Assembly (NCBI GenBank): GCA_964426025.1
Contig: CAYRQB010000001.1
Location: forward strand, 1,151-65,150
Direction: 5' to 3'
Source: an uncultured Heliomicrobium sp.
GTDB taxonomy: Bacteria; Acidobacteriota; Blastocatellia; RBC074
DNA: 64,000 nucleotides
The notes beneath the pieces are model-generated. The model was not told the DNA's origin. It searched no databases and was given only the letters and a program-made list of their open reading frames with translations. Shown here piece after piece: positions 31,364 to 58,086 of the stretch; the stretch's first letter is position 1, and the number at the start of each line of letters is the position of its first letter. Both the position numbers and the translations under genes were made by a program.

Positions 31364-31378
31364 TTCCAAGGAATGACC

Positions 31379-36416: not shown

Positions 36417-36420
<4 letters not shown>
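35452..36420 (+). CDS. UbiA-family prenyl-phosphate phosphoribosyltransferase-like (DPPR-synthase-like)
   Basis: IINDVADAEADRAHPEKRLRPIASG is the NDxxDxxxD Mg-binding motif. Multi-TM. Similarity is to decaprenyl-phosphate phosphoribosyltransferase. Confidence 0.8.
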
Positions 36421-38164
<1,744 letters not shown>

Positions 38165-38168
<4 letters not shown>

Positions 38169-39160
38169 ATGAAGACAAATTGCGGGTTTCGGTTGTCATA
38201 CCCGCTTACAACGAAGAGGCCGCGGTTGGAGCCGAGGTGAAAAACATCCGCCGGGTTTTGCAACAGCACGGCATCGCGCACGAAATCATAATCGTTGACG
38301 ACGGATCGCAGGATCGCACGGCTGACGAAGCTTTGAAGGCCGAAGCCAGGGTGCTGCGGCATTTGAAAAATCGCGGTTACGGCGCATCGCTCAAAACCGG
38401 AATCGTCGCCGCCAAATACGACATCATTGCCATCACAGACGCCGACGGAACTTATCCGGCTGATCAAATTCCTGAGTTGCTGGAAAAATTGAGGACGGCG
38501 GATATGGCTGTCGGCGCGCGCATCGGATCGAACGTCAACATTCCGCTGATTCGCAAACCCGGCAAATTGATTCTTGGATGGTTGGCCGAACGCATCGCCG
38601 GTCGGAAGATTCCCGATTTGAATTCGGGGCTGCGAGTTTTTCGCCGCGAAGTGGCGACTCAGTACTTTCCGGTTCTGTCGAACAAGTTTTCTTTCACGAC
38701 GACCATCACGTTGGCGCTGTTGGCCGACGATTATACGGTCATCTATCACCCGATTGATTATTACGCGCGGATCGGACGGTCGAAGATCGTCCCGCGTCAT
38801 TTTATGGATTTCATCATGCTGGTCTTGCGCCTGGCCATGCTGTTTCAACCATTGAAGGTGTTTATTCCGGCATCGCTGTTGTTTGGTTTTCTGGGCTTTG
38901 CCAAAGTGGTTTTCGACATTGTTACTTCATCATTGCGCCATCCGACAAACGATTGGTCGGTGCTTTACACGCCGGTGCTTTCAACTTCGGCGATTCTGCT
39001 GTTGCTGACCGGATTGCAATTCCTGTTGATCGGAATGGTGGCTGATGGGGTCGTTCGCCGCATTGCCCTGAACGCGGGACCGATGGCAGTTTCACGAGCC
39101 GTCGTCGCAGCGGAAATGAATCAAGACCAACAACGGGAGATGACTCATATTGCAGAGTGA
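38165..39160 (+). CDS. GT2 polyprenyl-phosphate glycosyltransferase (GtrB/ArnC/DPM1-like)
   Basis: Motifs are VSVVIPAYNEE, EIIIVDDGSQDRT and AITDADGTYPA. Two C-terminal TM helices are present, as in GtrB. Confidence 0.85.
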
Positions 39161-39222: not shown

Positions 39223-41121
39223 ATGTGCGGTATATGCGGCGTTTTGCGCCTGAACCCGGAAGCCGAACGCGTCGAACAAACGCTGATTGACAAAATGACA
39301 GATTCTTTGGCGCATCGCGGGCCGAATGATCGTGGGACGTGGTCGAATCATCGTATAAGTCTTGGAAGCCGTCGGCTGTCCGTGATTGACCTTTCAACCG
39401 CCGGCCATATGCCGATGGCGAATGAGGACGGAACCGTTTTCATCACATACAACGGCGAGTTGTACAATTTTCGCGAGTTGAAAGAACGCTTCAAGCTTGC
39501 CGAAAAATATAAATTCCGTTCGCGCACGGACACGGAAGTTCTGTTGCATCTGTACGAAGAACTTGGCGTCGAGATGGCCGAGCATTTGAACGGAATGTTC
39601 GCCATTGCCATTTGGGACAGCCGGACTGATACGCTTCACCTGATACGCGATCACATCGGAATCAAACCGCTGTTCTATCAGCGCGACGAAAACTACTTTC
39701 GCTTCGGATCGGAGATCAAAGCCATCATCGCCGATCCGCGCGTCCAGCGTCGCCCGTCGTTACAGGCGCTTTACGATTTTCTGACCTTCGATTACATCCC
39801 CGGCGAGCAAACGGCTTTCGATGGCATTTACGAAGTTCCGCCGGGTTATTGGCTGAGCGTTGATAAGGACGGGAATTCCAGACTGCAACGTTATTGGCAA
39901 ATCCCCTGGCAATTGGATGAATCGCTGGACGAACAAACGGCCAGCCGTCGCGCTTTCGAATTGATGGATCAGGCGGTCGAACGTCAGTTGGTTGCAGATG
40001 TTCCTGTCGGCGTTTTGTTGTCGGGCGGAATGGATTCCAGCACGCTCGTCGCTTTGATGTCTCGCCACACCTCTGAACCGATTCACACTTATTCCGTCGG
40101 CTTTGAAGATCAAAGCTTCAACGAACTGCCTTACGCCAGAATCGTCGCCAATCAGTTCAACACAGTACAACGCGAGGTGGTCGTTACTCCGCAGATTGTG
40201 CGCGATCTGTTGCCGAAATATCTGAGCTTCATTGACGAACCATACGGCGACGGTTCGGCCATTCCGACCTATTGCGTCTGCGAAATTGCCAAAGACGAAG
40301 TCGTCGTCGTGCTGTCTGGCGAAGGCGGAGACGAGGTTTTCGCCGGATACGACACGCACGCCGCCTACAAAGTCTCAAGTTGGTTCAAACGCGTGCCCCG
40401 CGTCATCAGACAGAAATTGATTGCGCCGATGGTCAACAGCTTGCCGGTTTCGGACAAAAAGCTGAGCCTGGAATTCAAGCTGAAGCGTTTTATCGGCGGG
40501 CAGGATTTGTCTCCGGCTGAAGCTCATATGTGGTGGCGCGTCGTGCTGACCGAAGCGCAGAAACGGGAATTGCTGGCGCCGCAGTTGTTCGCCGATTTCG
40601 ATCCGCAACCATCCGTTCGTCATTTCACTCAGGTTTTCAATCAATCGAAAGCCAATGAAACCTTGTCGCGGTTGATGGAAGTTGATTCGTCGGTTTTCCT
40701 GCCTGACGACCTGATGATCAAAAACGACAGGATGAGCATGGCGCATTCGCTGGAAGCTCGCGTGCCGATGACCGACACTGATCTGATGAACTTCATGTCC
40801 GGCGTGCCGACAAAATTGAAACTGCCGGGATTGCGGAAAAAGAACATCATGCGGCGCGCGATGGAAGGACATCTGCCTCCGGCCATTCTGAACAAGAAAA
40901 AGGTCGGCCTGGAAATGCCCTACTCCCGTTGGTTCAAAAATGAGTTGAAAGAAACTCTGCTCGATTACCTGTCGCCGGAACGCGTCAATGATCGCGGATT
41001 GTTTCAACCGGCGGCGGTCAAAAAACTGATTGATGAACATTTGACGGCCAAACACGATCACGGACGCGCTCTGTGGGGATTGTTGAATTACGCCGTCTGG
41101 ATGGAGCTTTACATCCCTTGA
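39223..41121 (+). CDS. asnB: Asparagine synthase (glutamine-hydrolysing) family amidotransferase
   Basis: MCGICGV gives the N-terminal Cys nucleophile. The PP-loop is LLSGGMDSS. The length is 632 aa. Confidence 0.9.
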   Translation: MCGICGVLRLNPEAERVEQTLIDKMTDSLAHRGPNDRGTWSNHRISLGSRRLSVIDLSTAGHMPMANEDGTVFITYNGELYNFRELKERFKLAEKYKFRSRTDTEVLLHLYEELGVEMAEHLNGMFAIAIWDSRTDTLHLIRDHIGIKPLFYQRDENYFRFGSEIKAIIADPRVQRRPSLQALYDFLTFDYIPGEQTAFDGIYEVPPGYWLSVDKDGNSRLQRYWQIPWQLDESLDEQTASRRAFELMDQAVERQLVADVPVGVLLSGGMDSSTLVALMSRHTSEPIHTYSVGFEDQSFNELPYARIVANQFNTVQREVVVTPQIVRDLLPKYLSFIDEPYGDGSAIPTYCVCEIAKDEVVVVLSGEGGDEVFAGYDTHAAYKVSSWFKRVPRVIRQKLIAPMVNSLPVSDKKLSLEFKLKRFIGGQDLSPAEAHMWWRVVLTEAQKRELLAPQLFADFDPQPSVRHFTQVFNQSKANETLSRLMEVDSSVFLPDDLMIKNDRMSMAHSLEARVPMTDTDLMNFMSGVPTKLKLPGLRKKNIMRRAMEGHLPPAILNKKKVGLEMPYSRWFKNELKETLLDYLSPERVNDRGLFQPAAVKKLIDEHLTAKHDHGRALWGLLNYAVWMELYIP

Positions 41122-41219
41122 ATAAACGACGCTGGCAAGCTCGACTGAAATTGCTACACACAATTGACGAATAACCAAAGATCACAATTATGGCCGACAC
41201 TGAAAAAAGGAGAAGTCAT

Positions 41220-43406
41220 ATGTCGAAGTTAGGGTTACTCATAATTGGGTTGGCGATTCTGGTTGCAGTATTTCCAAAGTCGGAGCCTTCTTTGGAACCT
41301 GCCCCCTTGCAACAGGCTCAAATCACGATTGATCCGAACACCAGTTACCAGACGATTGTTGGTTGGGAAGCAGTGGCTCAGGCCGGACAGGTGCTGGAAA
41401 CAAATTCCGTCACCAACAGATCAAACATCAACCCTGCATTCGTCAATTACAAAAATCAGTTGTTCGATCTGGCGGTCAACGATTTGGGGCTGAACAGGTT
41501 TCGTCTGGAAATCAGAGCCGGTTTGGAAAATCCCGTTGATTATTACACCAGGTACATCAACGGCCAGATTTCTTTCGACAATTTCAAAAACCGATGGTAC
41601 GAGATCATCAACGATAATAACGATCCGCAAACGATAAATCCGAGCGGTTTTCAATTCGCCGAACTGGATTTCAACATCGAGAACGTAATCATACCGATTC
41701 GCCAACGGCTGGCGGCCAGAAGCGAAAAGCTTTACCTGAATCTGAACTACGTTGATTTCACCGCCTCGGCCTTCGAGCATAAAAACTTTCCGGAAGAATA
41801 TGCAGAGTTTATGTTGGCCGCTTTCATTCATATGCGCGACAAATTTGGTTTCACGCCGGACGCGGTGGAAATCATTCTGGAACCCGACACCGGAGCCAAC
41901 TGGAACGCGACGCAAATTGGAAACTGTTTGGCCGCCGCCGGAAATCGTTTGCGAGCGAACGGATTCAATCCGGATTTCGTCGCTCCGTCCTGCACCAACA
42001 TGTTCAATTCGTTGGCATACTTCGATCAATTGATACAGGTTCCCGGCGTCACTCAATTCATTTCAGAAGTTTCCTACCATCGTTACGCGGGAGCGACCGA
42101 CGATGCGTTGCGAGGATTTGCCAGTCGCGGCGCTCAATACAAGATTGACACTTCTCATCTGGAATTGATCGGAGCGACACAAAACGATCTTCATTCTGAT
42201 TTGACGCTGGCGAACAATTCTTCGTGGCAACAATTTGCGCTGGCGTTTCCGTTGGGAGGCAGCGACGACGGCAGCGCTTATTACGATGTCAACGACAGCA
42301 ACCCGGCCAATCCGACGCTGACGATGGGAAGCCGCGCGAAGATACTCAGGCAATATTTCCGATTCATCCGGGCTGGCGCTTTGCGAATCAAAGCCACAAC
42401 CACTTCCGATGTGTTCGACCCGGCGGTTTTCGTCAACACCGATGGCAAGTTCGTTGTCGTAGTGAAAGCTATTGCCGGTGGAAACATCACGCTGCAAGGG
42501 TTGCCAGCCGGAACTTATGGAATCAAATACACCACGCCCAGCCAATACGACGTTGACGCAACGGACGCGACAATCAGCGCCGGGCAATCGTTGAATGCTT
42601 CCATCCCGCGCGACGGCGTGATTACGATTTACGGCAAAACTTTGCCGAGCGTGGTGTCGGTTGATGCCGCCAGTTATGTTCGCGCCAGTTCGCCCGGACA
42701 GATCGAAGCCGCTTTCGGCTCAGGTTTTCCAGCGCAAACAAACGTCGCTGTGTCGGCCAGTTCAACTCCGCTGCCAACCAAATTGTCGAATGTCTCATTG
42801 AAAGTGAACGGCGTTCTCGCTCCGTTGTTTTTTGTCGGCGTCGGAGGCGGTCAAGGCGCAGGAGCTTTTCAAATCAATTATCAGGTTCCGTATCAAACCA
42901 AACCCGGTTTGGCGAGAATTGAAGCGCTGAATAACGATGTGCCGGTTTCAACCGGATACCTGATCGTCGGCGAAGTGGCTCCCGGGGTTTTCACAATTTC
43001 GGCGACGGGCAAAGGGCAGGCTGTGGCAATCAATCAGGATTTTTCGCTCAATGGCGATTCGGCGCAAAACCCGCGCGCGAAGCCGGAAGAGCGCGGGCGT
43101 GTCATAACCTTCTTCGCCAACGGTCCCGGCGGACAATTTACAAATCCGGCCAACGGCCAGTCTCTAACTCCGGTTTCCGGCGAACCCACGCCCGCCAATC
43201 CGTTCTATGCGACTCAAACCGCTCCGATCGTCACCGTCGGCGGCGTGCCTGCGACAGTTACTTTCAGCGGATTGACGCCTGGCTTTGTCGGATTGTGGCA
43301 ATTGAACGTGGTCATTCCGCCAACCGCGCCGGTCGGCAATGCGGTTCCAGTCGTCATCAAATTGAATCGGCGAACGACCAATCTGACCAACATCGCAGTG
43401 ATTTGA
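41220..43406 (+). CDS. Secreted clan GH-A-like glycoside hydrolase with two C-terminal TIGR03437-type soil-associated domains
   Basis: The ATG at 41220 has an AAGGAG 6 nt upstream and encodes a signal peptide. ILEPDTG is a GH-A NEP-like acid/base motif. The C-terminal repeats are IEAAFGSGF...VNGVLAPLFFV...QINYQVPY and TVGGVPATVTFSGLTPGFVGLWQLNVVIP. Confidence 0.65.
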   Translation: MSKLGLLIIGLAILVAVFPKSEPSLEPAPLQQAQITIDPNTSYQTIVGWEAVAQAGQVLETNSVTNRSNINPAFVNYKNQLFDLAVNDLGLNRFRLEIRAGLENPVDYYTRYINGQISFDNFKNRWYEIINDNNDPQTINPSGFQFAELDFNIENVIIPIRQRLAARSEKLYLNLNYVDFTASAFEHKNFPEEYAEFMLAAFIHMRDKFGFTPDAVEIILEPDTGANWNATQIGNCLAAAGNRLRANGFNPDFVAPSCTNMFNSLAYFDQLIQVPGVTQFISEVSYHRYAGATDDALRGFASRGAQYKIDTSHLELIGATQNDLHSDLTLANNSSWQQFALAFPLGGSDDGSAYYDVNDSNPANPTLTMGSRAKILRQYFRFIRAGALRIKATTTSDVFDPAVFVNTDGKFVVVVKAIAGGNITLQGLPAGTYGIKYTTPSQYDVDATDATISAGQSLNASIPRDGVITIYGKTLPSVVSVDAASYVRASSPGQIEAAFGSGFPAQTNVAVSASSTPLPTKLSNVSLKVNGVLAPLFFVGVGGGQGAGAFQINYQVPYQTKPGLARIEALNNDVPVSTGYLIVGEVAPGVFTISATGKGQAVAINQDFSLNGDSAQNPRAKPEERGRVITFFANGPGGQFTNPANGQSLTPVSGEPTPANPFYATQTAPIVTVGGVPATVTFSGLTPGFVGLWQLNVVIPPTAPVGNAVPVVIKLNRRTTNLTNIAVI

Positions 43407-44419
43407 TGGAAACAGGAACGCGGGCATCCCTGCCCGCAAAAATCGAAGCGCGAAGCATCCTGGTTTTCGGCTCATCAGGTTTCATAGGCCGCTGGGTTTC
43501 CCGGCGGCTTTGCGGTCAGGGCACAAAGCCTTTTCTGGTCGTGCGCGATGAGAAAGCGGCAGAGCGAGTTTTCGCCGATTACGAAATCGAGGGCGAGGTT
43601 ATCCGGGCGGATTTGCGTCGGCTGGATTCCGTTGCCGAGATCATAGGTAAGATCAAACCTGACGTGGTTTTCAATCTGGCCGGTTACGGCGTTGATCGTT
43701 CAGAACGCGACGAAGCGATGGCTTATCGAATCAACGCCGAATTGGTTGAAACAATCTGCAAAGCGATGGCGGCGAATCGAAATTCAAACTGGCCGGGTCA
43801 ACAAATTGTTCACGTAGGTTCTGCGTTGGAGTACGGCGAAATCGGCGGCAATCTGGCTGAAGATTCGTCGGTCAATCCGACCACGCTTTACGGCAAATCA
43901 AAACTGATGGGGACGAACTTGTTGACCAGATGTTGCCGTGAATTCGGCATCAGTGGAATCACGGCTCGTTTGTTTACTGTCTATGGCGCTGGCGAACACG
44001 ACGGACGATTGTTGCCTTCGTTGCTGAAAGCCGCAACCGACGGCCAGCCGTTGCAATTGACGGCGGGCGAACAAAAACGGGACTTCACCTATGTCGAAGA
44101 CGTCGCCGAAGGTTTGCTTCGTTTGGCTGCATGTAAATCGCAGGCCGGAGAGATCGTCAATCTGGCGACCGGACGATTGACTGCGGTTCGCGGCTTCATC
44201 GAGACGGCGGCTTCGATTCTGAACATCCCCGAAAACAAATTGCAGTTCGGCGCGATTCCAACCCGCGCCGAAGAAATGCAGCACGACCCGGTGACGGTTG
44301 ATCGTTTGCGGGGGCTGATTGATTGGACGCCGCCGACTGACATCGCCGAAGGAATTCAACAAACAGTAAAGCAGGCGAGACGCCTGATTTACCAGGAGGC
44401 AGTATGCGCATCTTCTTAG
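43406..44419 (+). CDS. NAD(P)-dependent epimerase/reductase (SDR, NDP-sugar modifying)
   Basis: The ATG overlaps the upstream TGA (TGATG). Motifs are ILVFGSSGFIGRWV and YGKSK (the YxxxK). Confidence 0.8.
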   Translation: METGTRASLPAKIEARSILVFGSSGFIGRWVSRRLCGQGTKPFLVVRDEKAAERVFADYEIEGEVIRADLRRLDSVAEIIGKIKPDVVFNLAGYGVDRSERDEAMAYRINAELVETICKAMAANRNSNWPGQQIVHVGSALEYGEIGGNLAEDSSVNPTTLYGKSKLMGTNLLTRCCREFGISGITARLFTVYGAGEHDGRLLPSLLKAATDGQPLQLTAGEQKRDFTYVEDVAEGLLRLAACKSQAGEIVNLATGRLTAVRGFIETAASILNIPENKLQFGAIPTRAEEMQHDPVTVDRLRGLIDWTPPTDIAEGIQQTVKQARRLIYQEAVCASS

Positions 44420-46449
44420 CCGATCTTGGCCATAATCAACTGACTTACAGTTCGGATGTTTATCCGCTGGGTGTAGCCAATCTGGCGACTTACGTTCGCG
44501 AATACCTCGATCCGCGCTATCCGTTGGAGATCAAAATTTTCCGCGAGCCTGAAGACTTGAAAGCTGCGCTGGACGACGGTTCGCCGGATGTGTTGGCGCT
44601 CAGCAGTTATTCGTGGAATCACAACCTGGCGCTGCACTTTGCCGATTACGCGAAAGCTGGCAATTCACAAGTCTTGACGCTGATGGGCGGGCCGAACTTT
44701 CCGCTGACGGCTGCCGAACAGGAAAGCTTTTTGCGCGGAATGTCGCAGATAGACATTGCTGTTCGCGGCCCGACTTACGAAGGCGAGCGCGCATTTCTGA
44801 ACATCATTCGCCGCCTTGCCGAAGTCGGTTGTCAGCGCGAAGGTGTGTTTGAAGAATCGGTTCCGGGCAATATGTGGATTCATCCGCGCACTGGCGAATT
44901 CGTCGTTGGCGGAGAGGTCGAACGCATTCGCGATCTGGATGAAATTCCTTCGCCTTATCTGTCGGGATTGATGGACGATTATTTCAAGACAGGATATTTC
45001 CCGATGATGCAGATTGCGCGCGGCTGTCCGTTCAGTTGCACCTATTGCAATTCCAGCGTTGACGCCAACAGCAAGATTTACGCGCATTCGGTTGAAAACG
45101 TGAAGGCCGATTTGTTGTACATCGCCGAACGCATCCGGCCAGAGGTCACGTTATGCTTTGCCGACGACAACTTTGGAATGTATCAGCGCGACGAAGAAGT
45201 CGCCGATTACATCAGCTACTTGCAGGAGCATTACAACTGGCCGCAGTACTTGCGCACTACGACCGGCAAAAATCGCGGCGAGCGAATCATCAAAGTCATG
45301 CGAAAGGTCAAAGGCCGTTTGCCGATGACCGCGGCGGTACAATCGCTGAATCCCACGGTTCTGAAAAACATCAAACGGGCGAACATCAGTCTGGATACAT
45401 TCGCGGACATTCAGAAAGAAGTCATCGCACAGGGAATGCAATCTTACGGCGAACTGATTCTGAGCATGCCGGGCGAAACCAAAGCTTCGTTTATGAACGC
45501 CGTTCGCGATTTGCTGGAAGCCGGAGTCAAACGAATCTCCGCGCATCAATTGATGCTGTTGCACGGCGCTCCGCTCAGCAATCCCGAAAGCCGCGAACTG
45601 TTCCAATTCAAAACCCGGTTTCGCGTCGTCGCTCGCAACATCGGCGATTACACCGGAACGCCGGTCATCGAAACCGAAGAGATGGTGGTCGAAACGCCTG
45701 ACTTCAGTTTCGAGGAATATCTGGAAGCGCGAGTCTTTCATCTGCTGCTGACGATCTTTTATTACGAAGGCAATTTTGAAGAGCCGTTCGAATACGCGCA
45801 TCAGGAAGGCATCAAGGCTTTCGACGTGATGGTGCGAATGCAGCAAATGCTTGACGAAGCGCCGCCCGCATTCCGGGCGATGATTGACGATTTCCTGCAA
45901 GAAAGTCAGGAAGAGCTTTTCCAGACCAGAGAAGCCTGCGTCGAATGGGCGAAGCAGAATTTCGTCGCGCTGGTTGACGGCAGTTTGGGCGGCAATTTGC
46001 TGAGCAAGTATTCGATGATCGGACGGTTTTATCTGACTCAGGAAGCGATTGAGTTTCTGGAAACGACGATTTCCGCAATGCTTGATGAAGCCGAGCTTCG
46101 ATCGGAACCGGCGGCGCTTCACGCGACGACGGATTATCTTCGCTGCATTTTGCTTCACGTTCCGTTCGCTGAAAACCTGTCGGCCAATCCTGAATGGACG
46201 ACTTCTTACGATGTCGAAGCCTGGCATCGAGACGGTTACGCGAACCATCTGGAAAAATACGATCTGGGTCGTCCGATGACATTCGCCACGAAAGTCGAGG
46301 CCGACAAACGAGCCTTGATCGAAAGCCGTGTCGCCACTTTTGGCGAACATCCATCCGGACTGGGAAAATTCACTAGAACCATGTTTGCGCAGGATTTGCG
46401 CCGCACCACTGTTCGCGGTGAAAGCGCAACGGCAGGAACCGGAGATTGA
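44404..46449 (+). CDS. B12-binding-domain radical SAM protein (class B radical SAM, methyltransferase-like)
   Basis: A GGAGG RBS precedes it. The N-terminal ~150 aa are B12-binding-like. ARGCPFSCTYC is a Cx3Cx2C motif. The length is 681 aa. Confidence 0.8.
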   Translation: MRIFLADLGHNQLTYSSDVYPLGVANLATYVREYLDPRYPLEIKIFREPEDLKAALDDGSPDVLALSSYSWNHNLALHFADYAKAGNSQVLTLMGGPNFPLTAAEQESFLRGMSQIDIAVRGPTYEGERAFLNIIRRLAEVGCQREGVFEESVPGNMWIHPRTGEFVVGGEVERIRDLDEIPSPYLSGLMDDYFKTGYFPMMQIARGCPFSCTYCNSSVDANSKIYAHSVENVKADLLYIAERIRPEVTLCFADDNFGMYQRDEEVADYISYLQEHYNWPQYLRTTTGKNRGERIIKVMRKVKGRLPMTAAVQSLNPTVLKNIKRANISLDTFADIQKEVIAQGMQSYGELILSMPGETKASFMNAVRDLLEAGVKRISAHQLMLLHGAPLSNPESRELFQFKTRFRVVARNIGDYTGTPVIETEEMVVETPDFSFEEYLEARVFHLLLTIFYYEGNFEEPFEYAHQEGIKAFDVMVRMQQMLDEAPPAFRAMIDDFLQESQEELFQTREACVEWAKQNFVALVDGSLGGNLLSKYSMIGRFYLTQEAIEFLETTISAMLDEAELRSEPAALHATTDYLRCILLHVPFAENLSANPEWTTSYDVEAWHRDGYANHLEKYDLGRPMTFATKVEADKRALIESRVATFGEHPSGLGKFTRTMFAQDLRRTTVRGESATAGTGD

Positions 46450-46452
46450 TTT

Positions 46453-47235
46453 ATGGAAACAATTACTCGAATTTCAGACCCTGAACTTTCCTTCGTCATG
46501 CCTTGTTACAACGAAGAGGAGATCATCGGTTACACCATTCCGCGTTTTACCGCTGCATTCAAAAAAGCGGGTATCAAGTTGGAATTGATCGCGGTTGACA
46601 ACGGTTCGCGCGACCGCACTAGCGAAATGATTCGCGAAATGGCGGCGGGCGATCCGACGATTGTTTATCACCGCGTCGAAATCAACGAAGGTTACGGCAA
46701 CGGCGTGCTGTGCGGATTGAAGGTTTGCCGCGCGCCGTGGGTCGGCATCATTCCATGTGACGGACAGGTTGACGCCGAAGACGTGGTTGCCTTGTTCGAC
46801 GCAATCAAAACCACGAACGGAAATGTGCTTGGCAAAGTGCGGCGGCGATTCCGCATGGACGGGCTGTGGCGCAAAGTCGTTTCGGTCAGTTACAACCTGA
46901 TGGTGCGCGCGCTGTGGCCGCGATTGGGTTCGATTGACGTCAACGGCAGTCCGAAGATTTTGCCGCGCGAAGCGATTGAAGCGATGGAACTGAAATCGAA
47001 GAACTGGTTTCTGGACCCCGAGATCGTCATCAAGGCTCATTACATGGGATTGCGCGTTCTGGAATTCAACGTCTTCGCGCGAATGCGCGGCAACGGACTT
47101 TCTCACGTGCGAGTGACGACCTGCTGGGAATTTCTGCGAAACCTTCTGATCTTCCGCTTCTCGCCCGAAATGCCCAAGTGGCGACAATCGTTAAGTTCCG
47201 AACTCAAGTCTGAAAAGACGCGAGTCGCCGCCTGA
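46453..47235 (+). CDS. Glycosyltransferase family 2 (soluble, DPM1-like)
   Basis: Motifs are SFVMPCYNEEE, LIAVDNGSRDRT and GIIPCDGQVD. Confidence 0.8.
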   Translation: METITRISDPELSFVMPCYNEEEIIGYTIPRFTAAFKKAGIKLELIAVDNGSRDRTSEMIREMAAGDPTIVYHRVEINEGYGNGVLCGLKVCRAPWVGIIPCDGQVDAEDVVALFDAIKTTNGNVLGKVRRRFRMDGLWRKVVSVSYNLMVRALWPRLGSIDVNGSPKILPREAIEAMELKSKNWFLDPEIVIKAHYMGLRVLEFNVFARMRGNGLSHVRVTTCWEFLRNLLIFRFSPEMPKWRQSLSSELKSEKTRVAA

Positions 47236-47263
47236 ACGCTATGGAGTTCAAGAAAATTTACTT

Positions 47264-47403
47264 CCCGCGAATCACGCAGATGAACGCGGATATTTAGCGG
47301 AGGCTTTTGATCAGCAGCCCACGTCCTAAACGTTTAGCGAATGAACGGCACTCAAACTGATAAAAGCCTCCTCCTCATTCGCGTTATCTGCGTGATTCGC
47401 GGG
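47264..47403. repeat. Imperfect palindrome of about 140 bp between the GT2 and C-methyltransferase genes
   Basis: The outer arms are CCCGCGAATCACGCAGATGAACGCG and CGCGTTATCTGCGTGATTCGCGGG. The inner arms pair GAGGCTTTTGATCAG with CTGATAAAAGCCTCC. AAACGTTT sits at the centre. Confidence 0.5.
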
Positions 47404-47430
47404 CAGAGTTTTCTTAACAGCTAAATCCTG

Positions 47431-48702
47431 ATGCTTATGGTGAATCCGAAAATGTCAACACGACCTGTTTATCATCGAAGAGAAACCTGCAGAGCCTGCG
47501 GCGAAAAAAGTCTCAGGCTCTTTTTGCCATTGGGTTCGCAACCGCTGGCTAATTCGTTTTTGAAATCGCCGGACGAATTTGCGAACGAACTTTTTTTCCC
47601 GCTGGACACGCATTTCTGTGAAAGCTGTTCGCTGGTTCAAATTCCCGACGTGGTTGACCCCGAAGTTTTGTTTCGTCATTACCTGTATGTGACCGGAACT
47701 TCCGAAACCATCGCCCGGCACAATCGCGATTACGCCAGAGCGGTGACCGAAATGCAGCATCTGGCCGCCGACGATCTGGTGATTGAAGTCGCCAGCAATG
47801 ACGGCAGTCTGTTGAGATGTTTTCAGGAATTGGGAGTGAAAACTTTGGGCGTTGATCCGGCGACGAACGTGGCGGCGATTGCACGCGCAAACGGAGTTGA
47901 AACGATCAATGAGTTTTTCAGTCACGACAGCGCACGAAAGATTCGCGGCGATTACGGCGCGGCCAAAGCCGTCATCGGCAACAACGTTCTGGCTCACGTT
48001 GACGACACACAGGATTTTTTGCGCGGTTGCAAAACTGTCATTGGCCCGGACGGGTTGGTCATCATCGAAATGCCTTATCTGGGCGATCTGCTCAATCGCA
48101 CGGAATACGACACGATTTACCACGAACATCTTTGTTACTTTTCGGTCAATTCGCTGATGCGGTTGTGCGAATCCGCAGGTTTGCGAATTGTGCGGATGGA
48201 TCACGTGCCGATTCACGGCGGCTCGCTCAGAATGCATGCCGGTCACGCCGAAGTTCATCAAGACCATTCGGCGCAAGTGATGGCTTGGGCTGAAGAAGAA
48301 AAGAGCAAAGGCTTCACCAGCTTTGAGCGATATGAACAATTGGCCAGAAGCGTCGAACGCAGTCGCGAAACGCTGCTCGATTTGTTGAACCGTTTGAAGT
48401 CCGAAGGTAAAACCGTCGCCGGTTACGGAGCGGCGGCAAAAGGCAATACGCTGTTGAATTATTGCCGGATCACGACCGATTTGATGCCTTACGTGGTGGA
48501 CAAAAACCCATTGAAATTGGGATTGTTCACGCCGGGCATGCACATTCCGGTTTTGCCGGTTTCGACCTTGCTGGAACAACAGCCGGATTACCTGCTGATT
48601 CTGGCGTGGAACTTTGCCGAAGAAATCATGCGTCAACAAAGCGAATACAAAGCTCGCGGCGGCAAGTTCATCATCCCGATTCCTGAAGCGACGGTGGTTT
48701 GA
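47431..48702 (+). CDS. NDP-hexose C-methyltransferase (TylCIII/NovU-like; N-terminal zinc-ribbon plus SAM-MTase plus C-MT C-terminal domain)
   Basis: ETCRACGEKSLRLFLPLGSQPLANSF is the putative Zn-binding methyltransferase domain. VIEVASNDGSLLR is the SAM-binding motif. The start could instead be 47437 or 47452. Confidence 0.75.
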   Translation: MLMVNPKMSTRPVYHRRETCRACGEKSLRLFLPLGSQPLANSFLKSPDEFANELFFPLDTHFCESCSLVQIPDVVDPEVLFRHYLYVTGTSETIARHNRDYARAVTEMQHLAADDLVIEVASNDGSLLRCFQELGVKTLGVDPATNVAAIARANGVETINEFFSHDSARKIRGDYGAAKAVIGNNVLAHVDDTQDFLRGCKTVIGPDGLVIIEMPYLGDLLNRTEYDTIYHEHLCYFSVNSLMRLCESAGLRIVRMDHVPIHGGSLRMHAGHAEVHQDHSAQVMAWAEEEKSKGFTSFERYEQLARSVERSRETLLDLLNRLKSEGKTVAGYGAAAKGNTLLNYCRITTDLMPYVVDKNPLKLGLFTPGMHIPVLPVSTLLEQQPDYLLILAWNFAEEIMRQQSEYKARGGKFIIPIPEATVV

Positions 48703-48703
48703 A

Positions 48704-49474
48704 ATGCAAGTTGTAATTTTGGCAGGCGGGCGCGGAACGCGTCTGGCCGAAGAAACCTCGATTCGTCCGAAGCCGATGGTGGAAATCGGCGGCAAGCCCA
48801 TGCTGTGGCACATCATGAACATCTACGCTCACCACGGCTTTAAGGATTTTCTGGTGGCCTGCGGTTACAAAGGTGAAATGATCAAGGAGTATTTCCACAA
48901 CTTCTTCATTCATCATAGCGATTACGTCATTAACCTCAGCGACCGTTCGATGGAAATCATCAACACCAACCGGCTGGATTGGCGCATCGGAGCCATTGAT
49001 ACCGGTTTGGATGCGATGACCGGCGGGCGTGTTTTGGCCTTGAAGCGTTTGATCGGCGAGAAAACTTTTTCGGTGACTTACGGCGACAGTTTGGGCAATG
49101 TTGATGTTCGGGCGCTGGTCGAATTCCATCGTTCGCACAAAAAGCTGGCGACGGTAACGGCGGTCAGGCCTCCGGCGCGATTCGGCGAATTGGTGCTTGA
49201 TGGAGATCGGGTCTGCGAGTTCCGCGAAAAACCCCAAACCGGCGAAGGTTGGATCAACGGCGGTTTTTTCGTTTTCGAACCCGGCGTTTTCGATTATCTG
49301 GCCGACGATCAAACCGTGCTGGAACGCGAACCGTTGGAACGGCTGGCAGCCGATGGGCAATTGATGGTTTTCAGGCACGAAGGATTTTGGCAGCCGATGG
49401 ACACGCTGAGAGAAAAACATTTACTTGAATCTTTGTGGAACGAGGGGAGAGCGCCTTGGAAAGTGTGGGAATGA
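48704..49474 (+). CDS. rfbF: Glucose-1-phosphate cytidylyltransferase
   Basis: [38 protein letters not shown]. The length is 256 aa. The ATG lies 1 nt after the upstream TGA. Confidence 0.9.
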
Positions 49475-50445
49475 ATTTCTGGAATCGCCGCAACGTTTTT
49501 GTGACGGGAGCGACCGGTTTGCTCGGTTCGTGGATGACCGAAGAGTTGTTGCAGCGCGGAGCGAATGTCACTTGCCTGATTCGCGATTGGGTTCCCGAAA
49601 GCCGTCTGGTGAATTCGGGCGCAGTTGCGCGAGTCAACGCCGTGCGCGGTGAATTGGAAGATTACCAGGCGCTGGCGCGGGCGCTGAACGAATACGAGAT
49701 TGATTCGGTTTTTCACCTGGGCGCGCAAACCATTGTCGGCACAGCATTGCGCGCGCCGCTTTCAACCTTTGAAGCGAACATTCGCGGCACGTGGAATTTG
49801 ATGGAAGCCTGCCGCGTCAATCCGAAAGTCGAACGCGTGATTCTGGCTTCCAGCGACAAGGCATACGGCGAGCAGGAGCAATTGCCTTACACCGAAGACG
49901 AGACTCTGAACAGCAAATATCCTTACGACGTTTCAAAATCGTGTTCGGAGTTCATCGCAATGTCGTATTTTCACACTTACCAAACGCCGGTGGCGATCAC
50001 GCGATGCGGCAATCTGTACGGAGGCGGCGATCTGAATTTCAATCGGCTGATTCCCGGAACGATTCGCTCGGCGTTGCGCGACGAAGCTCCGATCATTCGC
50101 AGCGACGGCAAATTCATTCGCGATTACTTTTTCGTCCGCGATGCTGTTGACGCTTATCTGACGCTGGCCGAACGATTGCCGGATCAGAAATTCAACGGCG
50201 AAGCTTTCAACTTCAGCACCGAAACGCCGCTTTCCGTTTTGGAGTTGGTGAATCAAATACTAAAGCTGACCGGCAAGACTCATTTGGTTCCGAAAGTTAT
50301 GAACGAAGCCAGTCGAGAGATTCACAAACAATATTTGAGCTGTGAGAAAGCCAAACGCATGCTCGGTTGGCAATCCAGACACGCGTTGGAAGATGGTCTG
50401 CAAGAAACAATCGGCTGGTACAAAAAGCGTTTGGGCGTGAGTTAA
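49471..50445 (+). CDS. rfbG: CDP-glucose 4,6-dehydratase
   Basis: Motifs are [14 protein letters not shown] and YDVSKSC (the YxxxK). An ATGA overlap couples it to rfbF. Confidence 0.9.
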
Positions 50446-51719: not shown

Positions 51720-53005
51720 ATCGTCCGCTCAATTTCCTGCACCTCACTACTTTCTACCCTCCTTACAGTTTTGGCGGCGATGCGATGTATCTTTACCGGC
51801 TGACACATGCACTGGGCGATGCCGGTCACAAGGTTGATGTTGTTCATTGCGTAGATTCGTATCATTTGCTGCATCCTGCCGAACCTGAAATCAAATTTGC
51901 AGACCATCCGAATGTGACAGTGCATGGGTTGCGTAGCGGATACAAATGGCTTTCTCCGTTGCTGACGCAACAAACCGGTCGTCCGTTTTTGAAAAAAGAC
52001 CGCATTAAAGAAGTTCTAGCCAGCAAGCCATATGATGTATTGCACTATCACAACATATCGTTGTTGGGACCAGAAATATTAATGATGGAGCCAGAACAGG
52101 GAAAGGCCGTCAAACTTTACACCACACATGAACACTGGCTGATTTGTCCGACACACGTACTTTGGAAATTCAACAGCCGTCCGTGCGAAAAACCTGATTG
52201 TTTGCGCTGCACGATCCGTGCGAAACGACCACCTCAGTTATGGCGCTATAGCGGTCTTCTCGAAAAGGCCAGCAAGCAGGTTGACCAATTTGTTTCGCCC
52301 AGTCGTTTTACCGCCGGGATGCACGCTGAACGCGGCTTTCCACAGCCGGTAGCGCATCTTCCTTACTTTATAGACCGTGTTGATCAGGACTGGATGCAGC
52401 CTGGCGAGCGTCCTCAGGAAAGACCGTATTTCATTTTTGTCGGGCGATTGGAAGAGATCAAAGGATTGCAGACGTTGATCGAAGTCTGGAAGAAAGTTGA
52501 AGACTTTGACCTCTTGGTAGCCGGAGCAGGCAATTATGGAGAACAATTACGAGCGCAGGCGGCAGACAATCCTCGAATAAAATTCCTGGGCGCTTTATCA
52601 CAGCGACAACTTGGAGCGCTTTATTTTCATGCGCTTGCCTGTCTGGTTCCTTCACTTACTTTCGAGACTTTCGGGATCATTATCATCGAATCGTTTGCTC
52701 GAAAAACTCCGGTTATTGTTCGCGACCTCGGCGCGCTTCCCGAAGTCGCCCAAGACAGCGGGGGCGGCTTCGTCTACCAAAATGATGAAGAGTTGCTGGC
52801 AGCCATCAATCGTCTGGCGGCTTCGCCAACTTTACGCAACGATTTAGGCGAAAATGGATATAGTGCCTTTCTTCGTTGGTGGTCAAAAGAGGCGCATCTG
52901 GACCTGTATTTTGACTTTCTGAAAAAGGCATCCACTCGCAAGTTCGGCTCAGTTCCCTGGGAAATGTCCGAAGTAGAGTCCGATAGCCTGATCGCACCTC
53001 GCTGA
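51716..53005 (+). CDS. Glycosyltransferase family 4
   Basis: An ATGA overlap couples it to the preceding gene. LNFLHLTTFYPPYSFGGDAMY is the GT4 N-terminal domain. ETFGIIIIESFARKTPVIV is present. Confidence 0.85.
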   Translation: MNRPLNFLHLTTFYPPYSFGGDAMYLYRLTHALGDAGHKVDVVHCVDSYHLLHPAEPEIKFADHPNVTVHGLRSGYKWLSPLLTQQTGRPFLKKDRIKEVLASKPYDVLHYHNISLLGPEILMMEPEQGKAVKLYTTHEHWLICPTHVLWKFNSRPCEKPDCLRCTIRAKRPPQLWRYSGLLEKASKQVDQFVSPSRFTAGMHAERGFPQPVAHLPYFIDRVDQDWMQPGERPQERPYFIFVGRLEEIKGLQTLIEVWKKVEDFDLLVAGAGNYGEQLRAQAADNPRIKFLGALSQRQLGALYFHALACLVPSLTFETFGIIIIESFARKTPVIVRDLGALPEVAQDSGGGFVYQNDEELLAAINRLAASPTLRNDLGENGYSAFLRWWSKEAHLDLYFDFLKKASTRKFGSVPWEMSEVESDSLIAPR

Positions 53006-53387
53006 CAGTTGCTGTATATAGACCTCTGCCATTCCATTGGTTATCAAAACCATATAAGACTTCGCTCGCCAGAGTGACTCGTTCTTTGCTTCTGCTAGAA
53101 TCAACTGAATCCCTCAAAAATCAAAAACTCCCTAACCCATAGCATAACTTGGCTTTGAAGCCGCCCTCTCAAGTCTTCCGCATAAAGCTTGGATATTTTC
53201 GACTCCATCGTCTGACAATTATTTTGTGAGTAGGACTTGAAGACTATTAAATGTAGGTAAAAACCTGACAATTATATTGACAGGTGACTACAATGCAGCT
53301 AAAGTCAGTCCGACTTAAGTTGTCCTATTTTTTGTAAGTTTAGTCATCACTTGATGGTGATTACAGATAAACGTCAGTCGAAAAATT

Positions 53388-54209
53388 ATGAAGCGACAGG
53401 TGCTGATTGCCGACTTAAAAGAGTCGGTCAACAAGAATGTTCGTTTGGTCGCCAATGACGATTCTGTATCACTGGTCAGCGAGCCTGAATTTGAGATCGC
53501 GGGTTATGGGAGTAGGACCAGGCCCATACTCGTAAAGCAGTTTAAGTCATATGATTTACAACTGCTTAAGGAAATTGATGCCGCTCGTGAGGATGAGCGT
53601 CGTCGTCTGTCTCGCGAATTACACGACCAGTTGGGGCAAGACCTGGTTGCATTATCGCTGGGGTTGAGATCGCTGAGAAAATCTGCCGCATACGATTCCA
53701 TCACAGGCAGCCAAATAGACGAATTGCAAGGGCTGGTTGATCAGCTTGGGATGCATGTCCATGAAATTGCTATGACATTGCGTCCGACAATTCTTGATGA
53801 TTTGGGATTGCAAATGGCTTTGACGAGCCTTGCGGAGCAATGGTCGCTGAATACCGGCATTGAAGTGAATTGCCGTATTTCGGGATTGGAAAATCAATAC
53901 ATCCCCAAGCCTGTTGAAACAACGATTTACAGAGTCTCGCAGGAAGCTCTAACAAACGTCTACAAACATGCTAAGGCGGATAACGTAGACCTAACCTTGA
54001 ACCGTGATGGCCGTAACTTAGTAGTGGTTATTTCTGATGATGGGAAGGGAATTGACTTTGAAGCTTTGAACAAAGCATCAGGGCTAAGTCATGGGTTGGG
54101 ACTGACCGGAATGCGCGAGCGAGTAACTCTGGTCAATGGCACGTTGAAGATTAAATCATCTCCAAACAAAGGGACGTCAATAATAATGAACATCCCACTT
54201 TTATCGTGA
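53388..54209 (+). CDS. Cytoplasmic sensor histidine kinase (HisKA_3 family) lacking TM or sensor domains
   Basis: RRRLSRELHDQLGQDL is the H-box. The HATPase_c region is LTGMRERVTLVNGTLKI. The N-terminal region is only about 75 aa. Confidence 0.8.
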   Translation: MKRQVLIADLKESVNKNVRLVANDDSVSLVSEPEFEIAGYGSRTRPILVKQFKSYDLQLLKEIDAAREDERRRLSRELHDQLGQDLVALSLGLRSLRKSAAYDSITGSQIDELQGLVDQLGMHVHEIAMTLRPTILDDLGLQMALTSLAEQWSLNTGIEVNCRISGLENQYIPKPVETTIYRVSQEALTNVYKHAKADNVDLTLNRDGRNLVVVISDDGKGIDFEALNKASGLSHGLGLTGMRERVTLVNGTLKIKSSPNKGTSIIMNIPLLS

Positions 54210-54220
54210 AAAGTACACCG

Positions 54221-54880
54221 ATGACCAAGTTAAGGGTCTTCCTTGTTGATGACCATCCAATTGTTCGCAAAGGGTTAAAGGCTCTAATTGACGAGCAGCT
54301 TGATATGGAAGTTGTTGGTGAAGCAGGTGATGGGCGTGTGGCTTTATTACAGGTAAAAGAGTTGCAGCCGGACGTTATGATTCTCGACCTGACGTTGCCG
54401 GATATGAATGGCATACAGGTCATGGAGCGTGTTAAACAGCTTTGCCCTAAGGTAAATGTTTTGGTGCTGACGATTCATGAAGCCAGCGGCTATCTTCGTC
54501 AGTTATTTCAAACGGGCGCAGCCGGTTATTTGTTAAAGAGAACTGCCGGGGAAGAGTTAACGCATGCTATACGGGTTGTCGCAACCGGCGGCGCTTATCT
54601 TGACCCTACTCTTGCAGGCAAGATGGTAACCACGTTGGTGCATCATTCACCTCAGAAGGGCAAAGACCCCGGCGCCCCCAACAAGCTAAGTGACCGTGAA
54701 AAAGAAGTGTTGCGCTTGATTGCTCTGGGTTACAGCAACAAGGAAATAGCCGCGCAACTTGATTTAAGCGCAAAAACAATCGAAACATATAAAGCTAGGC
54801 TGATTGAAAAACTTGGGTTAAGTAGTCGTTCTGAACTGGTCAGATATGCCTTGAATCAAGGCTGGCTCCAGGATGTTTGA
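54221..54880 (+). CDS. NarL/LuxR-family response regulator
   Basis: VFLVDDHPIVRKGL...VMILDLTLPDMNG is the receiver domain with the phospho-acceptor Asp. The HTH region is LSDREKEVLRLIALGYSNKEIA. The start could instead be the GTG at 54206. Confidence 0.85.
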   Translation: MTKLRVFLVDDHPIVRKGLKALIDEQLDMEVVGEAGDGRVALLQVKELQPDVMILDLTLPDMNGIQVMERVKQLCPKVNVLVLTIHEASGYLRQLFQTGAAGYLLKRTAGEELTHAIRVVATGGAYLDPTLAGKMVTTLVHHSPQKGKDPGAPNKLSDREKEVLRLIALGYSNKEIAAQLDLSAKTIETYKARLIEKLGLSSRSELVRYALNQGWLQDV

Positions 54881-54906
54881 TTTGAAAGTTGGCTTGGTTT
54901 TGCCAT

Positions 54907-54966
54907 GTCAGGAAAAACCCTTACTGAGGGGGATTTTCTGACTGTCGGCTCTTTTTTTTCCGACAG
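54907..54966 (+). terminator. Two adjacent stem-loops downstream of the response regulator gene
   Basis: The first is GTCAGGAAAAACCC..GGGGGATTTTCTGAC. The second is CTGTCGGctcttttttttCCGACAG. The T-run lies inside the loop rather than 3' of the stem. Confidence 0.35.
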
Positions 54967-55446
54967 ACAAGTTCGTTAATAAATGAGAGATTATGCTTAG
55001 GTGCCAGGAGACTTTTTTTGCTCCTCCTACAGCGGCTCAGCTCAGGGGGTAGTGACAAGATGTCAATTAGTTATGATCTGGTTATTTGGATGATCAGGTC
55101 TTGTCGCAAACCAGTAGGAAAGCGTGCGTTTCCGAATTGATTTTCGGTGTGTTCGCTATGGCTAAAAGTTTTAGGGAATGTCCGGGTCTCTAACCAATAA
55201 CATTAGGCCAGTTACAATCTTAAACAATACCGAATAACCCTTGGCTCCATCGCGAAGATGGACAACGACGGTCCCCATATAGTCCGAACGAGTTGCCCCA
55301 CATCGGAAGCTCAGAATTCGAACTCTTCTTATTATTACTTAGTAATTCAAGTGTGCATCTTGTAAGAGGTTTATGAATTCGTTCAATTTGCCCCATCGCA
55401 AATAATTTTAGTTTGCTTGTTACACTTTTGAGTTAGGAGGCGAATC

Positions 55447-56163: not shown

Positions 56164-56173
56164 CGAGTGATAA

Positions 56174-58055: not shown

Positions 58056-58086
58056 TGGTTTGACGATGACAAATAGGAGTACCCAA

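Follow-up and report, generated by a model that had tools for sequence, protein, structure and literature searches.

For the virenose of Coxiella burnetii lipopolysaccharide, a 6-deoxy-3-C-methyl sugar, a pathway has been proposed that involves the TylCIII-like protein CBU_0691 (PMC3539893), and on S. meliloti pSymB the genes SMb21416-21418 are annotated as ddhA, ddhB, and a nucleoside diphosphate (NDP)-hexose 3-C-methyltransferase (PMC4053727). C-methylation of sugars by radical S-adenosylmethionine (SAM) enzymes that depend on cobalamin (B12) is represented by GenK and GenD1 in the gentamicin pathway and by MoeK5 in the moenomycin pathway, and Fom3 acts on cytidylyl-2-hydroxyethylphosphonate (PMC9204698). 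Here we describe a set of six genes at positions 43406-50445 of a 64,000-nucleotide (nt) stretch of contig CAYRQB010000001.1 (assembly GCA_964426025.1, an uncultured Heliomicrobium sp. placed in the Blastocatellia, Acidobacteriota), hereafter the window. In this cassette, SAM-dependent C-methylation and radical B12 chemistry would be joined on one predicted cytidine diphosphate (CDP)-hexose pathway. To our knowledge, only a few cases of C-methyl-branched sugars in cell-envelope glycans have been solved chemically, and we know of radical B12-dependent C-methylation of sugars only in antibiotic pathways. A literature search found no paper joining a cobalamin radical SAM enzyme, CDP-glucose, and a C-methyltransferase.

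The first-pass annotation of the window had listed five genes in this interval, for glucose-1-phosphate cytidylyltransferase (rfbF), CDP-glucose 4,6-dehydratase (rfbG), a TylCIII-like C-methyltransferase, a B12-binding radical SAM protein, and a short-chain dehydrogenase/reductase (SDR). All five were found on the + strand where it had placed them; the list was incomplete in one respect, as a sixth gene, encoding a small family 2 glycosyltransferase (GT2), separates the gene of the radical SAM protein from that of the methyltransferase (Table 1). On balance, the evidence tips slightly towards a cassette that builds a CDP-activated C-methylated deoxy-sugar, which is modified by the B12 radical enzyme and delivered via a lipid carrier to an extracytoplasmic acceptor.

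Orthologues of the radical SAM gene were retrieved together with their surroundings as 80 genomic loci, onto which the window proteins were mapped by tblastn. Unless another total is given, counts refer to the 43 well-flanked loci, i.e., those with at least 6 kb on either side of the radical SAM gene. Clustering of greedy open reading frame (ORF) calls in the 80 loci split families and undercounted loci, so the counts were taken from tblastn instead; the clustering still revealed three kinds of neighbours, namely a GT-C type membrane glycosyltransferase, a flavin adenine dinucleotide (FAD) oxidoreductase, and a PEMT-like protein. The GT2 gene was present in 32 of the 43 loci, rfbF in 31, the methyltransferase gene in 30, and the SDR and rfbG-like genes in 24 each; all five partners occurred together in 20 loci, and none of them in 8. 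The gene order SDR, radical SAM, GT2, methyltransferase, rfbF, rfbG is repeated in Acidobacteriota, Gemmatimonadota, Chloroflexi, and Rokubacteria, and the cassette is rearranged in Planctomycetota and Alphaproteobacteria. The nearest loci, at 85-90% identity, belong to metagenome-assembled genomes of Blastocatellia and other Acidobacteriota. The functional set is also carried, in a different order, by a cultured marine alphaproteobacterium, Ruegeria sp. HKCCD7303 (locus L068, positions 3396-15169), where the genes for an FAD oxidoreductase, RfbF, an rfbG-like SDR, the C-methyltransferase, an SDR, and the B12 radical SAM protein are accompanied on the opposite strand by those for a GT-C and a 357-amino-acid (aa) GT2. 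Since several phyla share this set of neighbours of the radical SAM orthologue, the grouping of the genes goes far beyond chance, and the synteny across phyla indicates that they belong to one pathway. The six genes are a conserved module and not a chance neighbourhood.

The B12 radical SAM protein matches PF02310 with 38.6 bits (cut-off 32.1) and PF04055 with 40.8 bits (cut-off 29.5), and its cluster motif, C208-x3-C212-x2-C215, is invariant in 14 orthologues. When a profile built from these 14 orthologues was compared with solved structures, only TokK (E 7e-56) and CysS (3e-52) were retrieved. The AlphaFold2 (AF2) model of the protein, with a predicted TM-score (pTM) of 0.70, was matched by Foldseek over its full length (~640-710 columns) to TokK (TM 0.66-0.70) and CysS (TM 0.63-0.69), followed by TsrM and MgmA, and the match with TokK and CysS takes in the C-terminal helical domain. 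The cobalamin-binding fold, to whose presence the first-pass annotation had tied its proposal, is supported, at the level of a predicted structure, by the full-length match together with the PF02310 hit.

The motifs of the TokK cluster comprise Trp76, Asp250-Ala251-Asn252, and Trp215 (PMC9204698), Trp76 standing at the position where radical methylases shield the lower face of cobalamin with a Trp (PMC12931638, PMC9204698). In the window protein, W71 aligns with TokK W76 and is invariant among orthologues, and D254-D255-N256 aligns with TokK D250-A251-N252. By analogy with these enzymes, the reaction is most likely a radical C-methylation, which would be the second C-methylation of the sugar.

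More than 4,300 database proteins are homologous to the radical SAM protein at E <= 1e-20. Among the labels of the orthologues with 60-70% identity are Blastocatellia, Bryobacteraceae, Gemmatimonadaceae, and Chloroflexi, and at 50% clustering the orthogroup collapses to essentially one representative. Beyond the orthogroup there are relatives at 42, 40, and 39% identity and then a cloud of ~680-aa proteins at 30-37%, so that hundreds of uncharacterised 680-aa proteins (30-42% identity) are nearer to the radical SAM protein than TokK is.

The best solved match of the GT2 by sequence is the Pyrococcus dolichol-phosphate mannose synthase (DPMS; 5mlz, 1e-13), followed by ArnC and GtrB. In its AF2 model, with a predicted local distance difference test score (pLDDT) of 78, the chain finishes with two helices (221-235 and 239-254). 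GtrB, ArnC, or DPMS accounted for all of the first 25 Foldseek matches (E 8e-14 to 1e-10, TM 0.60-0.72), with other GT-A enzymes coming after them. On the strength of this model, the GT2 is predicted to be a polyprenyl-phosphate glycosyltransferase.

A ~730-aa membrane protein of GT-C type with weak PMT_2 similarity is encoded directly 5' of the SDR gene in ~25 loci. The GT-C of the window (Table 1) shares 44-52% identity with two members of this family, and its homologues (31-54% identity) are present in 29 of the 80 loci, mostly directly 5' of the SDR gene; it probably acts as the module's last transferase, shifted 23 kb upstream in this lineage. Taken together, a GtrB/ArnC-like GT2 and its usual GT-C neighbour suggest that a polyprenyl-phosphate carrier brings the sugar to a periplasmic GT-C. 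A GtrA-like flippase was not identified in the window.

In the window and its closest relatives (L001-L008), the position 5' of the SDR gene is occupied by a gene for a 738-aa protein without a Pfam match, whereas most other phyla have the GT-C gene there. This protein (41190-43406) has an N-terminal signal-like segment, and its gene shares one base with the SDR gene (TGATG); its C-terminal region presumably resembles a C-terminal domain common in Acidobacteria. The FAD amine-oxidase-like protein of Table 1 has a 52% homologue adjoining rfbF in two Ruegeria loci (L068, L075), and a 477-aa relative, also with a GLF match, is present in 21-28 loci; it is a possible further member of the module. 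In locus L001 (3664-5701) and related loci, genes for a PEMT/ICMT-like membrane methyltransferase (~190 aa, 10 loci) and a FAD amine-oxidase/GLF-like protein (~477 aa, 21 loci) were seen, which in the closest relatives sit between the ArnC-like GT2 gene and the gene of the 738-aa protein. In the window, an asparagine synthase gene (39223-41121) stands in place of this pair, and no PEMT-like homologue was found there.

Several observations weigh against a radical methylase acting on a CDP-sugar that is then passed to a lipid carrier. The radical SAM protein scores far below the cut-off of the KedN5 family (NF033712), with 186 vs. 700 bits and over residues 53-389 only, it is ~22% identical to TokK and CysS, TokK W215 is replaced by the family-invariant S217, and the confidence of its structural model is moderate (pLDDT 70). 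As the comparisons with the NF033712 cut-off and with W215 both failed, we do not file the protein in the KedN5/TokK family and speak only of a likeness at the level of fold. For the GT2, no hydrophobic C-terminal tail is visible in the 260-aa sequence, as read by eye and not by a dedicated topology prediction, and we know of no polyprenyl-phosphate transferase that uses a CDP-sugar; DPM1-type enzymes devoid of transmembrane (TM) helices do exist. The rfbG-like protein, whose best model is TIGR02622, reaches 217.3 bits vs. a cut-off of 278.45, and the weak solved relatives of the SDR do not separate reductase from epimerase. In the 8 well-flanked loci devoid of partners, the radical SAM gene stands alone amid housekeeping genes (L11/L1, MreB/MreC, BamB-like), which made these loci uninformative as a clue to function, and several Planctomycetota loci have only the radical SAM and GT2 pair within 10 kb. 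From such lone genes and pairs, the enzyme might act on a lipid-linked sugar or on something else. It should be noted that class B enzymes also comprise the non-methylases OxsB, BchE, and HpnJ (PMC9204698).

In one alternative, CDP-3-C-methyl-6-deoxyhexose is made, but the substrate of the B12 enzyme is the polyprenyl-phosphate-linked sugar or the completed glycan, or else the enzyme catalyses a non-methylating radical reaction (e.g., epimerisation, rearrangement, or ring contraction). Besides the paired Planctomycetota loci, the Ser in place of TokK Trp215, and the non-methylases of class B, this alternative draws on the GT2 gene, which keeps closer to the radical SAM gene than any other partner, being found <=400 nt downstream of it in 47 of 73 loci and present in 32 of the 43 well-flanked ones, and on the long handles that bear the substrates of TokK and CysS, whose crystal structures contain pantetheinylated substrates according to the entry titles. 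However, whether one compares sequences or folds, the nearest relatives of solved structure are methylases, and the sub-corrin Trp of radical methylases is invariant (PMC12931638). In addition, the 42% paralogue is directly followed by genes for a PF08421/PF08484 methyltransferase (37% identical to that of the window) and an SDR, with no GT2 homologue. Because this paralogue keeps the methyltransferase, the partnership of the radical SAM clade with TylC3-type methyltransferases predates the orthogroup, and its neighbours tie the enzyme to sugar tailoring more than to a lipid step. We therefore consider action at the lipid level, or a reaction other than methylation, unlikely, although it deserves to be kept in view.

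Other paralogues of the same length (36-40% identity; L085 8001-10061 and L086 8001-10064) are found in nonulosonic-acid loci. Both loci contain NeuB and AsnB; DegT and a member of the PF02348 CMP-type cytidylyltransferase family occur in L085 only, whereas in L086 there is another B12 radical SAM gene. The nonulosonic-acid loci of the 39-40% paralogues link the wider clade to the tailoring of nucleotide-activated sugars, which hints at a broad clade of radical enzymes tailoring cytidine-activated sugars. A paralogue on an Azospirillum plasmid (30% identity), amid carbamoyltransferases, further radical SAM genes, and a methyltransferase, was uninformative for the cassette.

The proposal of a CDP-sugar methylated in succession by two enzymes also involves the SAM-dependent methyltransferase. 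Three domains, PF08421 (75.3 bits), PF13489 (57.1 bits), and PF08484 (206.7 bits), are each matched in it across the full profile. It aligns with the D-mycarose 3-C-methyltransferase MtmC (4rv9) at E 2e-103 and 42% identity over 406 ungapped positions, with KijD1 at 1e-84, and with TcaB9 at 1e-83. The zinc cysteines C20, C23, C63, and C66, as well as H189 and Y230-H231-E232-H233 (Y-x-E-H), are kept, and C20, C23, C63, C66, H189, Y230, E232, and H233 are identical in MtmC and KijD1. The corresponding active-site residues of TcaB9 are H181, Y222, E224, and H225. The assignment to the TylC3/MtmC/TcaB9 class of NDP-ketosugar enzymes made in the first-pass annotation is upheld by these full-length matches and retained residues, and instead of a clustering with O- or N-methyltransferases, which it had named as the contrary outcome, all strongly matching solved relatives (E 2e-103 to 1e-82) are sugar 3-C-methyltransferases.

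From the 42% identity to MtmC and the adjoining rfbF and rfbG-like genes, the enzyme most likely methylates C3 of an NDP-4-keto-6-deoxyhexose. The earlier expectation of a 3-C- or 4-C-methyl sugar holds for C3 and fails for C4 as far as this enzyme is concerned, since its family methylates the carbon adjacent to the 4-keto group; a 4-C-methyl group could come only from the radical enzyme. NovU, which methylates C5, belongs to the same family as the TylC3-type methyltransferases. A NovU-like reaction, as in noviose biosynthesis, would give a 5-C-methyl (gem-dimethyl) sugar, and both C3 and C5 flank the 4-keto group, with no 3,5-epimerase gene in the cassette; against this, the strong solved matches MtmC, KijD1, and TcaB9 are all 3-C-methyltransferases and their active-site residues align one to one with those of the window enzyme, which makes methylation at C5 improbable.

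The remaining enzymes of the predicted route to a CDP-3-C-methyl sugar differ in the strength of their matches. RfbF matches TIGR02623 over positions 1-255 of 255 with 377.1 bits, above the equivalog cut-off of 300.25. The rfbG-like protein is a divergent short form, 324 aa in length vs. 352 positions of the TIGR02622 model, and its best solved matches are the CDP-glucose 4,6-dehydratases 1rkx (E 7e-43) and 1wvg (1e-39). Its S-S-D-K-A-Y aligns with T-S-D-K-C-Y of 1rkx and its Y-D-V-S-K with Y-S-N-S-K, the YxxxK motif. An Asp-Lys acid/base pair is typical of CDP 4,6-dehydratases, and Asp-Glu is found in the deoxythymidine diphosphate (dTDP) enzymes. Of the annotated rfbF/rfbG pair, a CDP-type 4,6-dehydratase coupled to rfbF stands, as a form that scores below the rfbG equivalog cut-off. 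In Planctomycetota, the orthologue of the rfbG-like protein scores 195 on TIGR02622, and the rfbF homologue is only ~43% identical, yet scores 298 bits on TIGR02623. In the SDR, the motifs GxxGxxG, Ser, and YxxxK can be read in the translation; its solved relatives are weak (MoeE5 6kv9, 1e-18; guanosine diphosphate (GDP)-6-deoxy-D-lyxo-4-hexulose reductase 2pk3, 1e-13). From its sequence, it is probably the C4 ketoreductase or epimerase/reductase of the pathway.

The genes for 3-deoxygenation, E1 (DdhC, pyridoxamine phosphate-dependent, DegT_DnrJ_EryC1) and E3 (DdhD), were not found among the 45 window ORFs scanned. We therefore set aside the classical 3,6-dideoxyhexose (ddh/rfb) pathway and regard a branched sugar as likelier than a 3,6-dideoxy sugar.

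The junctions of the cassette are tight. The coupling of rfbF and rfbG by ATGA, described in the first-pass annotation, is real (gaATGAat); the SDR and radical SAM genes overlap by 16 nt, the gap between the radical SAM and GT2 genes is 3 nt, and that between the methyltransferase gene and rfbF is 1 nt. The only loose junction is the 195-nt spacer between the GT2 and methyltransferase genes. Although the locus is rich in other glycosyltransferases and sugar-modifying genes, a chance adjacency in which rfbF and rfbG serve an ordinary CDP-sugar (e.g., a 3,6-dideoxyhexose) and the other genes are unrelated is very improbable, given that the gene set travels together in at least five phyla and in differing contexts, that the junctions overlap or nearly so, and that the window has no E1 (DegT-type) or E3 gene.

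Table 1. Genes of the cassette and its two outlying candidate partners in the window; products are predicted assignments.
Feature	Position	Strand	Length	Profile matches
SDR, extended	43406-44419	+	337 aa	PF01370 E 6e-44
Cobalamin-binding (class B) radical SAM protein, TokK/CysS-like	44404-46449	+	681 aa	PF02310, PF04055
Small GT2 glycosyltransferase	46453-47235	+	260 aa	PF00535
NDP-4-keto-6-deoxyhexose C-methyltransferase, TylC3/MtmC/TcaB9 class	47431-48702	+	423 aa	PF08421, PF13489, PF08484
rfbF, glucose-1-phosphate cytidylyltransferase	48704-49474	+	256 aa	TIGR02623
rfbG-like CDP-hexose 4,6-dehydratase, divergent short form	49471-50445	+	324 aa	TIGR02622 below cut-off
GT-C type membrane glycosyltransferase	18322-20649	+	775 aa	PF13231 PMT_2 35.7 bits, STT3 N-terminal domain 30.2 bits
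FAD amine-oxidase-like protein	15983-17944	+	653 aa	PF01593, PF13450

According to the pathway that we propose, RfbF would convert glucose-1-phosphate and CTP into CDP-D-glucose, and the rfbG-like SDR would dehydrate the latter to CDP-4-keto-6-deoxy-D-glucose. The TylC3/MtmC-type enzyme would then use SAM to methylate the carbon beside the keto group, most likely C3, producing a quaternary branched carbon. These three steps rest on family membership and conserved catalytic residues. Reduction of the C4 keto group by the cassette SDR, possibly with epimerisation, would follow, and the TokK/CysS-like B12 enzyme would place one or more further methyl groups on an unactivated sp3 carbon, which may belong to the ring or be the methyl carbon at C6 or that of the newly formed C-methyl branch. 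The small GT2 would transfer the finished sugar to polyprenyl phosphate, and after flipping, the GT-C would link it, beyond the cytoplasmic membrane, to an acceptor that is plausibly the polysaccharide of the Wzx/Wza/Wzc locus. What the analysis shows are the domains and families of the proteins, their retained catalytic motifs, the likeness of their folds, and the linkage of the genes across phyla. We infer the SDR, radical, GT2, and GT-C steps and the order of all steps, as well as every substrate and methylated position, the role of the radical enzyme as a methylase, the lipid-carrier route, and the acceptor. From the context of the locus, it is plausible that the sugar ends up in exopolysaccharide, and a protein or lipid acceptor is also possible.

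As a tentative extension of the same joint reading, the B12 enzyme might add at least one carbon to a CDP- or lipid-linked 3-C-methyl-6-deoxyhexose, e.g., by lengthening the C-methyl branch or the C6 methyl to an ethyl or isopropyl group in the manner of TokK, ThnK, and CysS on their own substrates. This would yield a doubly C-alkylated sugar, for which we know of no described counterpart and which could be a common surface decoration, and the wider clade of 680-aa relatives, some of which are encoded in nonulosonic-acid loci, might form a large family of radical methylases tailoring cytidine-activated sugars. The bacteria so decorated would, with the same caution, be Acidobacteriota, Gemmatimonadota, Planctomycetota, and some marine Alphaproteobacteria.

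The cassette lies inside one long + strand operon extending from ~15983 to 53005. The only plausible terminator is 3' of this operon, at 53062-53077, and consensus scans for internal promoters and terminators that might split the cassette gave no more sites than shuffled sequence. Rfam gave no match at the gathering score in any part of the window, and we accordingly rejected a B12 riboswitch, or any further known RNA, in the vicinity of the radical SAM gene. Two antisense ORFs, 45151-46350 over the radical SAM gene and 47455-48822 over the methyltransferase gene, are regarded by us as shadow ORFs. The surrounding locus comprises Wzx, a Wza-like exporter, a Wzz/BY-kinase pair, a priming Bac_transf enzyme, many glycosyltransferases, deacetylases, and AsnB, which fits exopolysaccharide synthesis.

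Within the spacer between the GT2 and methyltransferase genes, positions 47261-47406 form a 146-nt near-perfect nested inverted repeat with outer arms of 21 nt and inner arms of 10 nt. As RNA it would fold into a single hairpin with a free energy of -73.6 kcal/mol (z = -8.7 vs. shuffles). The hairpin is absent from all related loci, where the spacer is ~22-170 nt long except in two loci. We considered a repeated mobile element and rejected it: the hairpin is single-copy in the window, the metagenome collection does not contain its 26-mer, and the matches of its 17-mer there are single, unpaired, and consistent with chance. It looks like a lineage-specific palindromic insertion.

A second module for lipid-carrier glycosylation (35452-39160) consists of a UbiA-family protein, a PMT_2 GT-C (36402-38168), and an ArnC/AglJ-like GT2 (38165-39160). 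The UbiA-family protein scores above the equivalog cut-off for decaprenyl-phosphate phosphoribosyltransferase (252 vs. 234 bits), so that the module recalls the mycobacterial decaprenyl-phospho-ribose/arabinose route; in ~25 of the 80 loci, its GT-C and GT2 pair lies close to the cassette as well. At 21994-26255, an unusually long CofD-like protein (712 aa, weak match to 'GAK system CofD-like') precedes a HAD phosphatase, a GlmU-like nucleotidyltransferase, and a 243-aa GT2, which may be a further pathway for an activated precursor in the same operon. A radical SAM/SPASM protein is encoded within the polysaccharide operon at 31355-32533, just 5' of the Wzx flippase gene, and has homologues with 59-65% identity in three related loci (L058, L060, L078).

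Upstream of the polysaccharide operon, at 7362-11939, there is a gene for a 1525-aa protein with weak matches to a squalene-hopene cyclase C-terminal domain and to HEAT repeats. Downstream of the terminator at 53062-53077 there are genes for a histidine kinase, two LuxR-type response regulators, Wzz, BY-kinase, Bac_transf, and Wza, and then a formyltransferase-like gene and a deacetylase gene. Past the last family 4 glycosyltransferase gene (53000-64000 of the window), the G+C content falls from ~0.53 to ~0.47.

If the proposed pathway is correct, it would yield a new sugar and the first function for a tight and widespread orthogroup of B12 radical SAM proteins, and it would provide a lead for the ~1,000 remoter relatives of this orthogroup at E <= 1e-30. 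It would also mean that surface-glycan synthesis needs cobalamin in poorly studied bacteria. The cassette retains 60-70% identity between phyla that are dominant in soils and fresh waters. A cultured carrier, Ruegeria sp. HKCCD7303, offers a practical way of testing the pathway. Branched-deoxysugar synthesis and decoration via a lipid carrier are known in themselves; what is new is the uncharacterised and widely conserved B12 radical SAM step.

The proposed route shares its early logic with the antibiotic pathways of TDP-L-mycarose, D-mycarose, and tetronitrose (TylC3, MtmC, TcaB9, KijD1). The methyltransferases have the same domains, zinc cysteines, His, and Y-x-E-H, and the common scheme is that of a 4,6-dehydratase, SAM-dependent methylation of the adjacent carbon, and reduction of C4 by an SDR. 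In contrast to these pathways, the cassette is predicted to use CDP and not dTDP, has no genes for 2-/3-deoxygenation or amination, is located in an envelope glycan locus and not in an antibiotic cluster, and contains a B12 radical SAM enzyme as a fixed extra component. Vinelose, a CDP-linked 3-C-methyl sugar of Azotobacter, may be a further parallel.

Among envelope systems, those of virenose and pSymB likewise serve an envelope-glycan branched 6-deoxyhexose and combine a nucleotidyltransferase, a 4,6-dehydratase, a TylC3-type methyltransferase, and a reductase. The chemistry of the virenose pathway is the same, but GDP or dTDP activation was proposed for it (PMC3539893). The pSymB version is closer, with 59-66% identity for rfbF and 44.5% for the methyltransferase in tblastn comparisons with the window. 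On Labrenzia plasmids we found genes for GtrA, a hypothetical protein, rfbF, rfbG, DegT, a methyltransferase, an SDR, and a GT2, the DegT-family gene being additional relative to the cassette. Both the pSymB and the Labrenzia versions begin with rfbF, as far as this trio is concerned, and unlike the cassette they have no B12 radical SAM gene. Homologues of the methyltransferase are present on 169 plasmid records. The first-pass annotation had called this combination rare outside antibiotic pathways; at the gene level this was overstated, in view of those plasmid records and of the trio on pSymB and in Labrenzia. As the rfbF/rfbG/methyltransferase trio is common without the B12 enzyme, the new element is the B12 enzyme itself.

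The radical SAM protein resembles TokK, ThnK, and CysS, members of the KedN5 family that methylate sp3 carbons one or more times, in its length, three-domain fold, cluster motif, sub-corrin Trp, and the D-x-N at the 'GGE' position (PMC9204698). The partners of those enzymes belong to carbapenem or polyketide/nonribosomal peptide synthetase systems, whereas the partners in the cassette are nucleotide-sugar enzymes. GenK, GenD1, MoeK5, and Fom3 are precedents for radical C-methylation of sugars or for a cytidylylated substrate (PMC9204698), but they belong to antibiotic pathways and act on pseudo-oligosaccharides or a phosphonate and not on an NDP-hexose, and none of them was retrieved here as a close relative.

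Finally, the pairing of a polyprenyl-phosphate glycosyltransferase with a GT-C, as predicted for the cassette, is that of the GtrA/GtrB/GtrC and ArnC/ArnT systems. The GT2 of the cassette differs in having no visible transmembrane helices, whereas GtrB, ArnC, and the Pyrococcus DPMS have C-terminal ones, and its donor would be a CDP-sugar, as against the uridine diphosphate (UDP)- or GDP-sugars of the Gtr and Arn systems. Overall, the distinctive feature of the cassette compared with all of these systems is the fixed coupling of a TylC3-type methyltransferase, a TokK-like B12 radical SAM enzyme, and a GtrB-like GT2 devoid of transmembrane helices.

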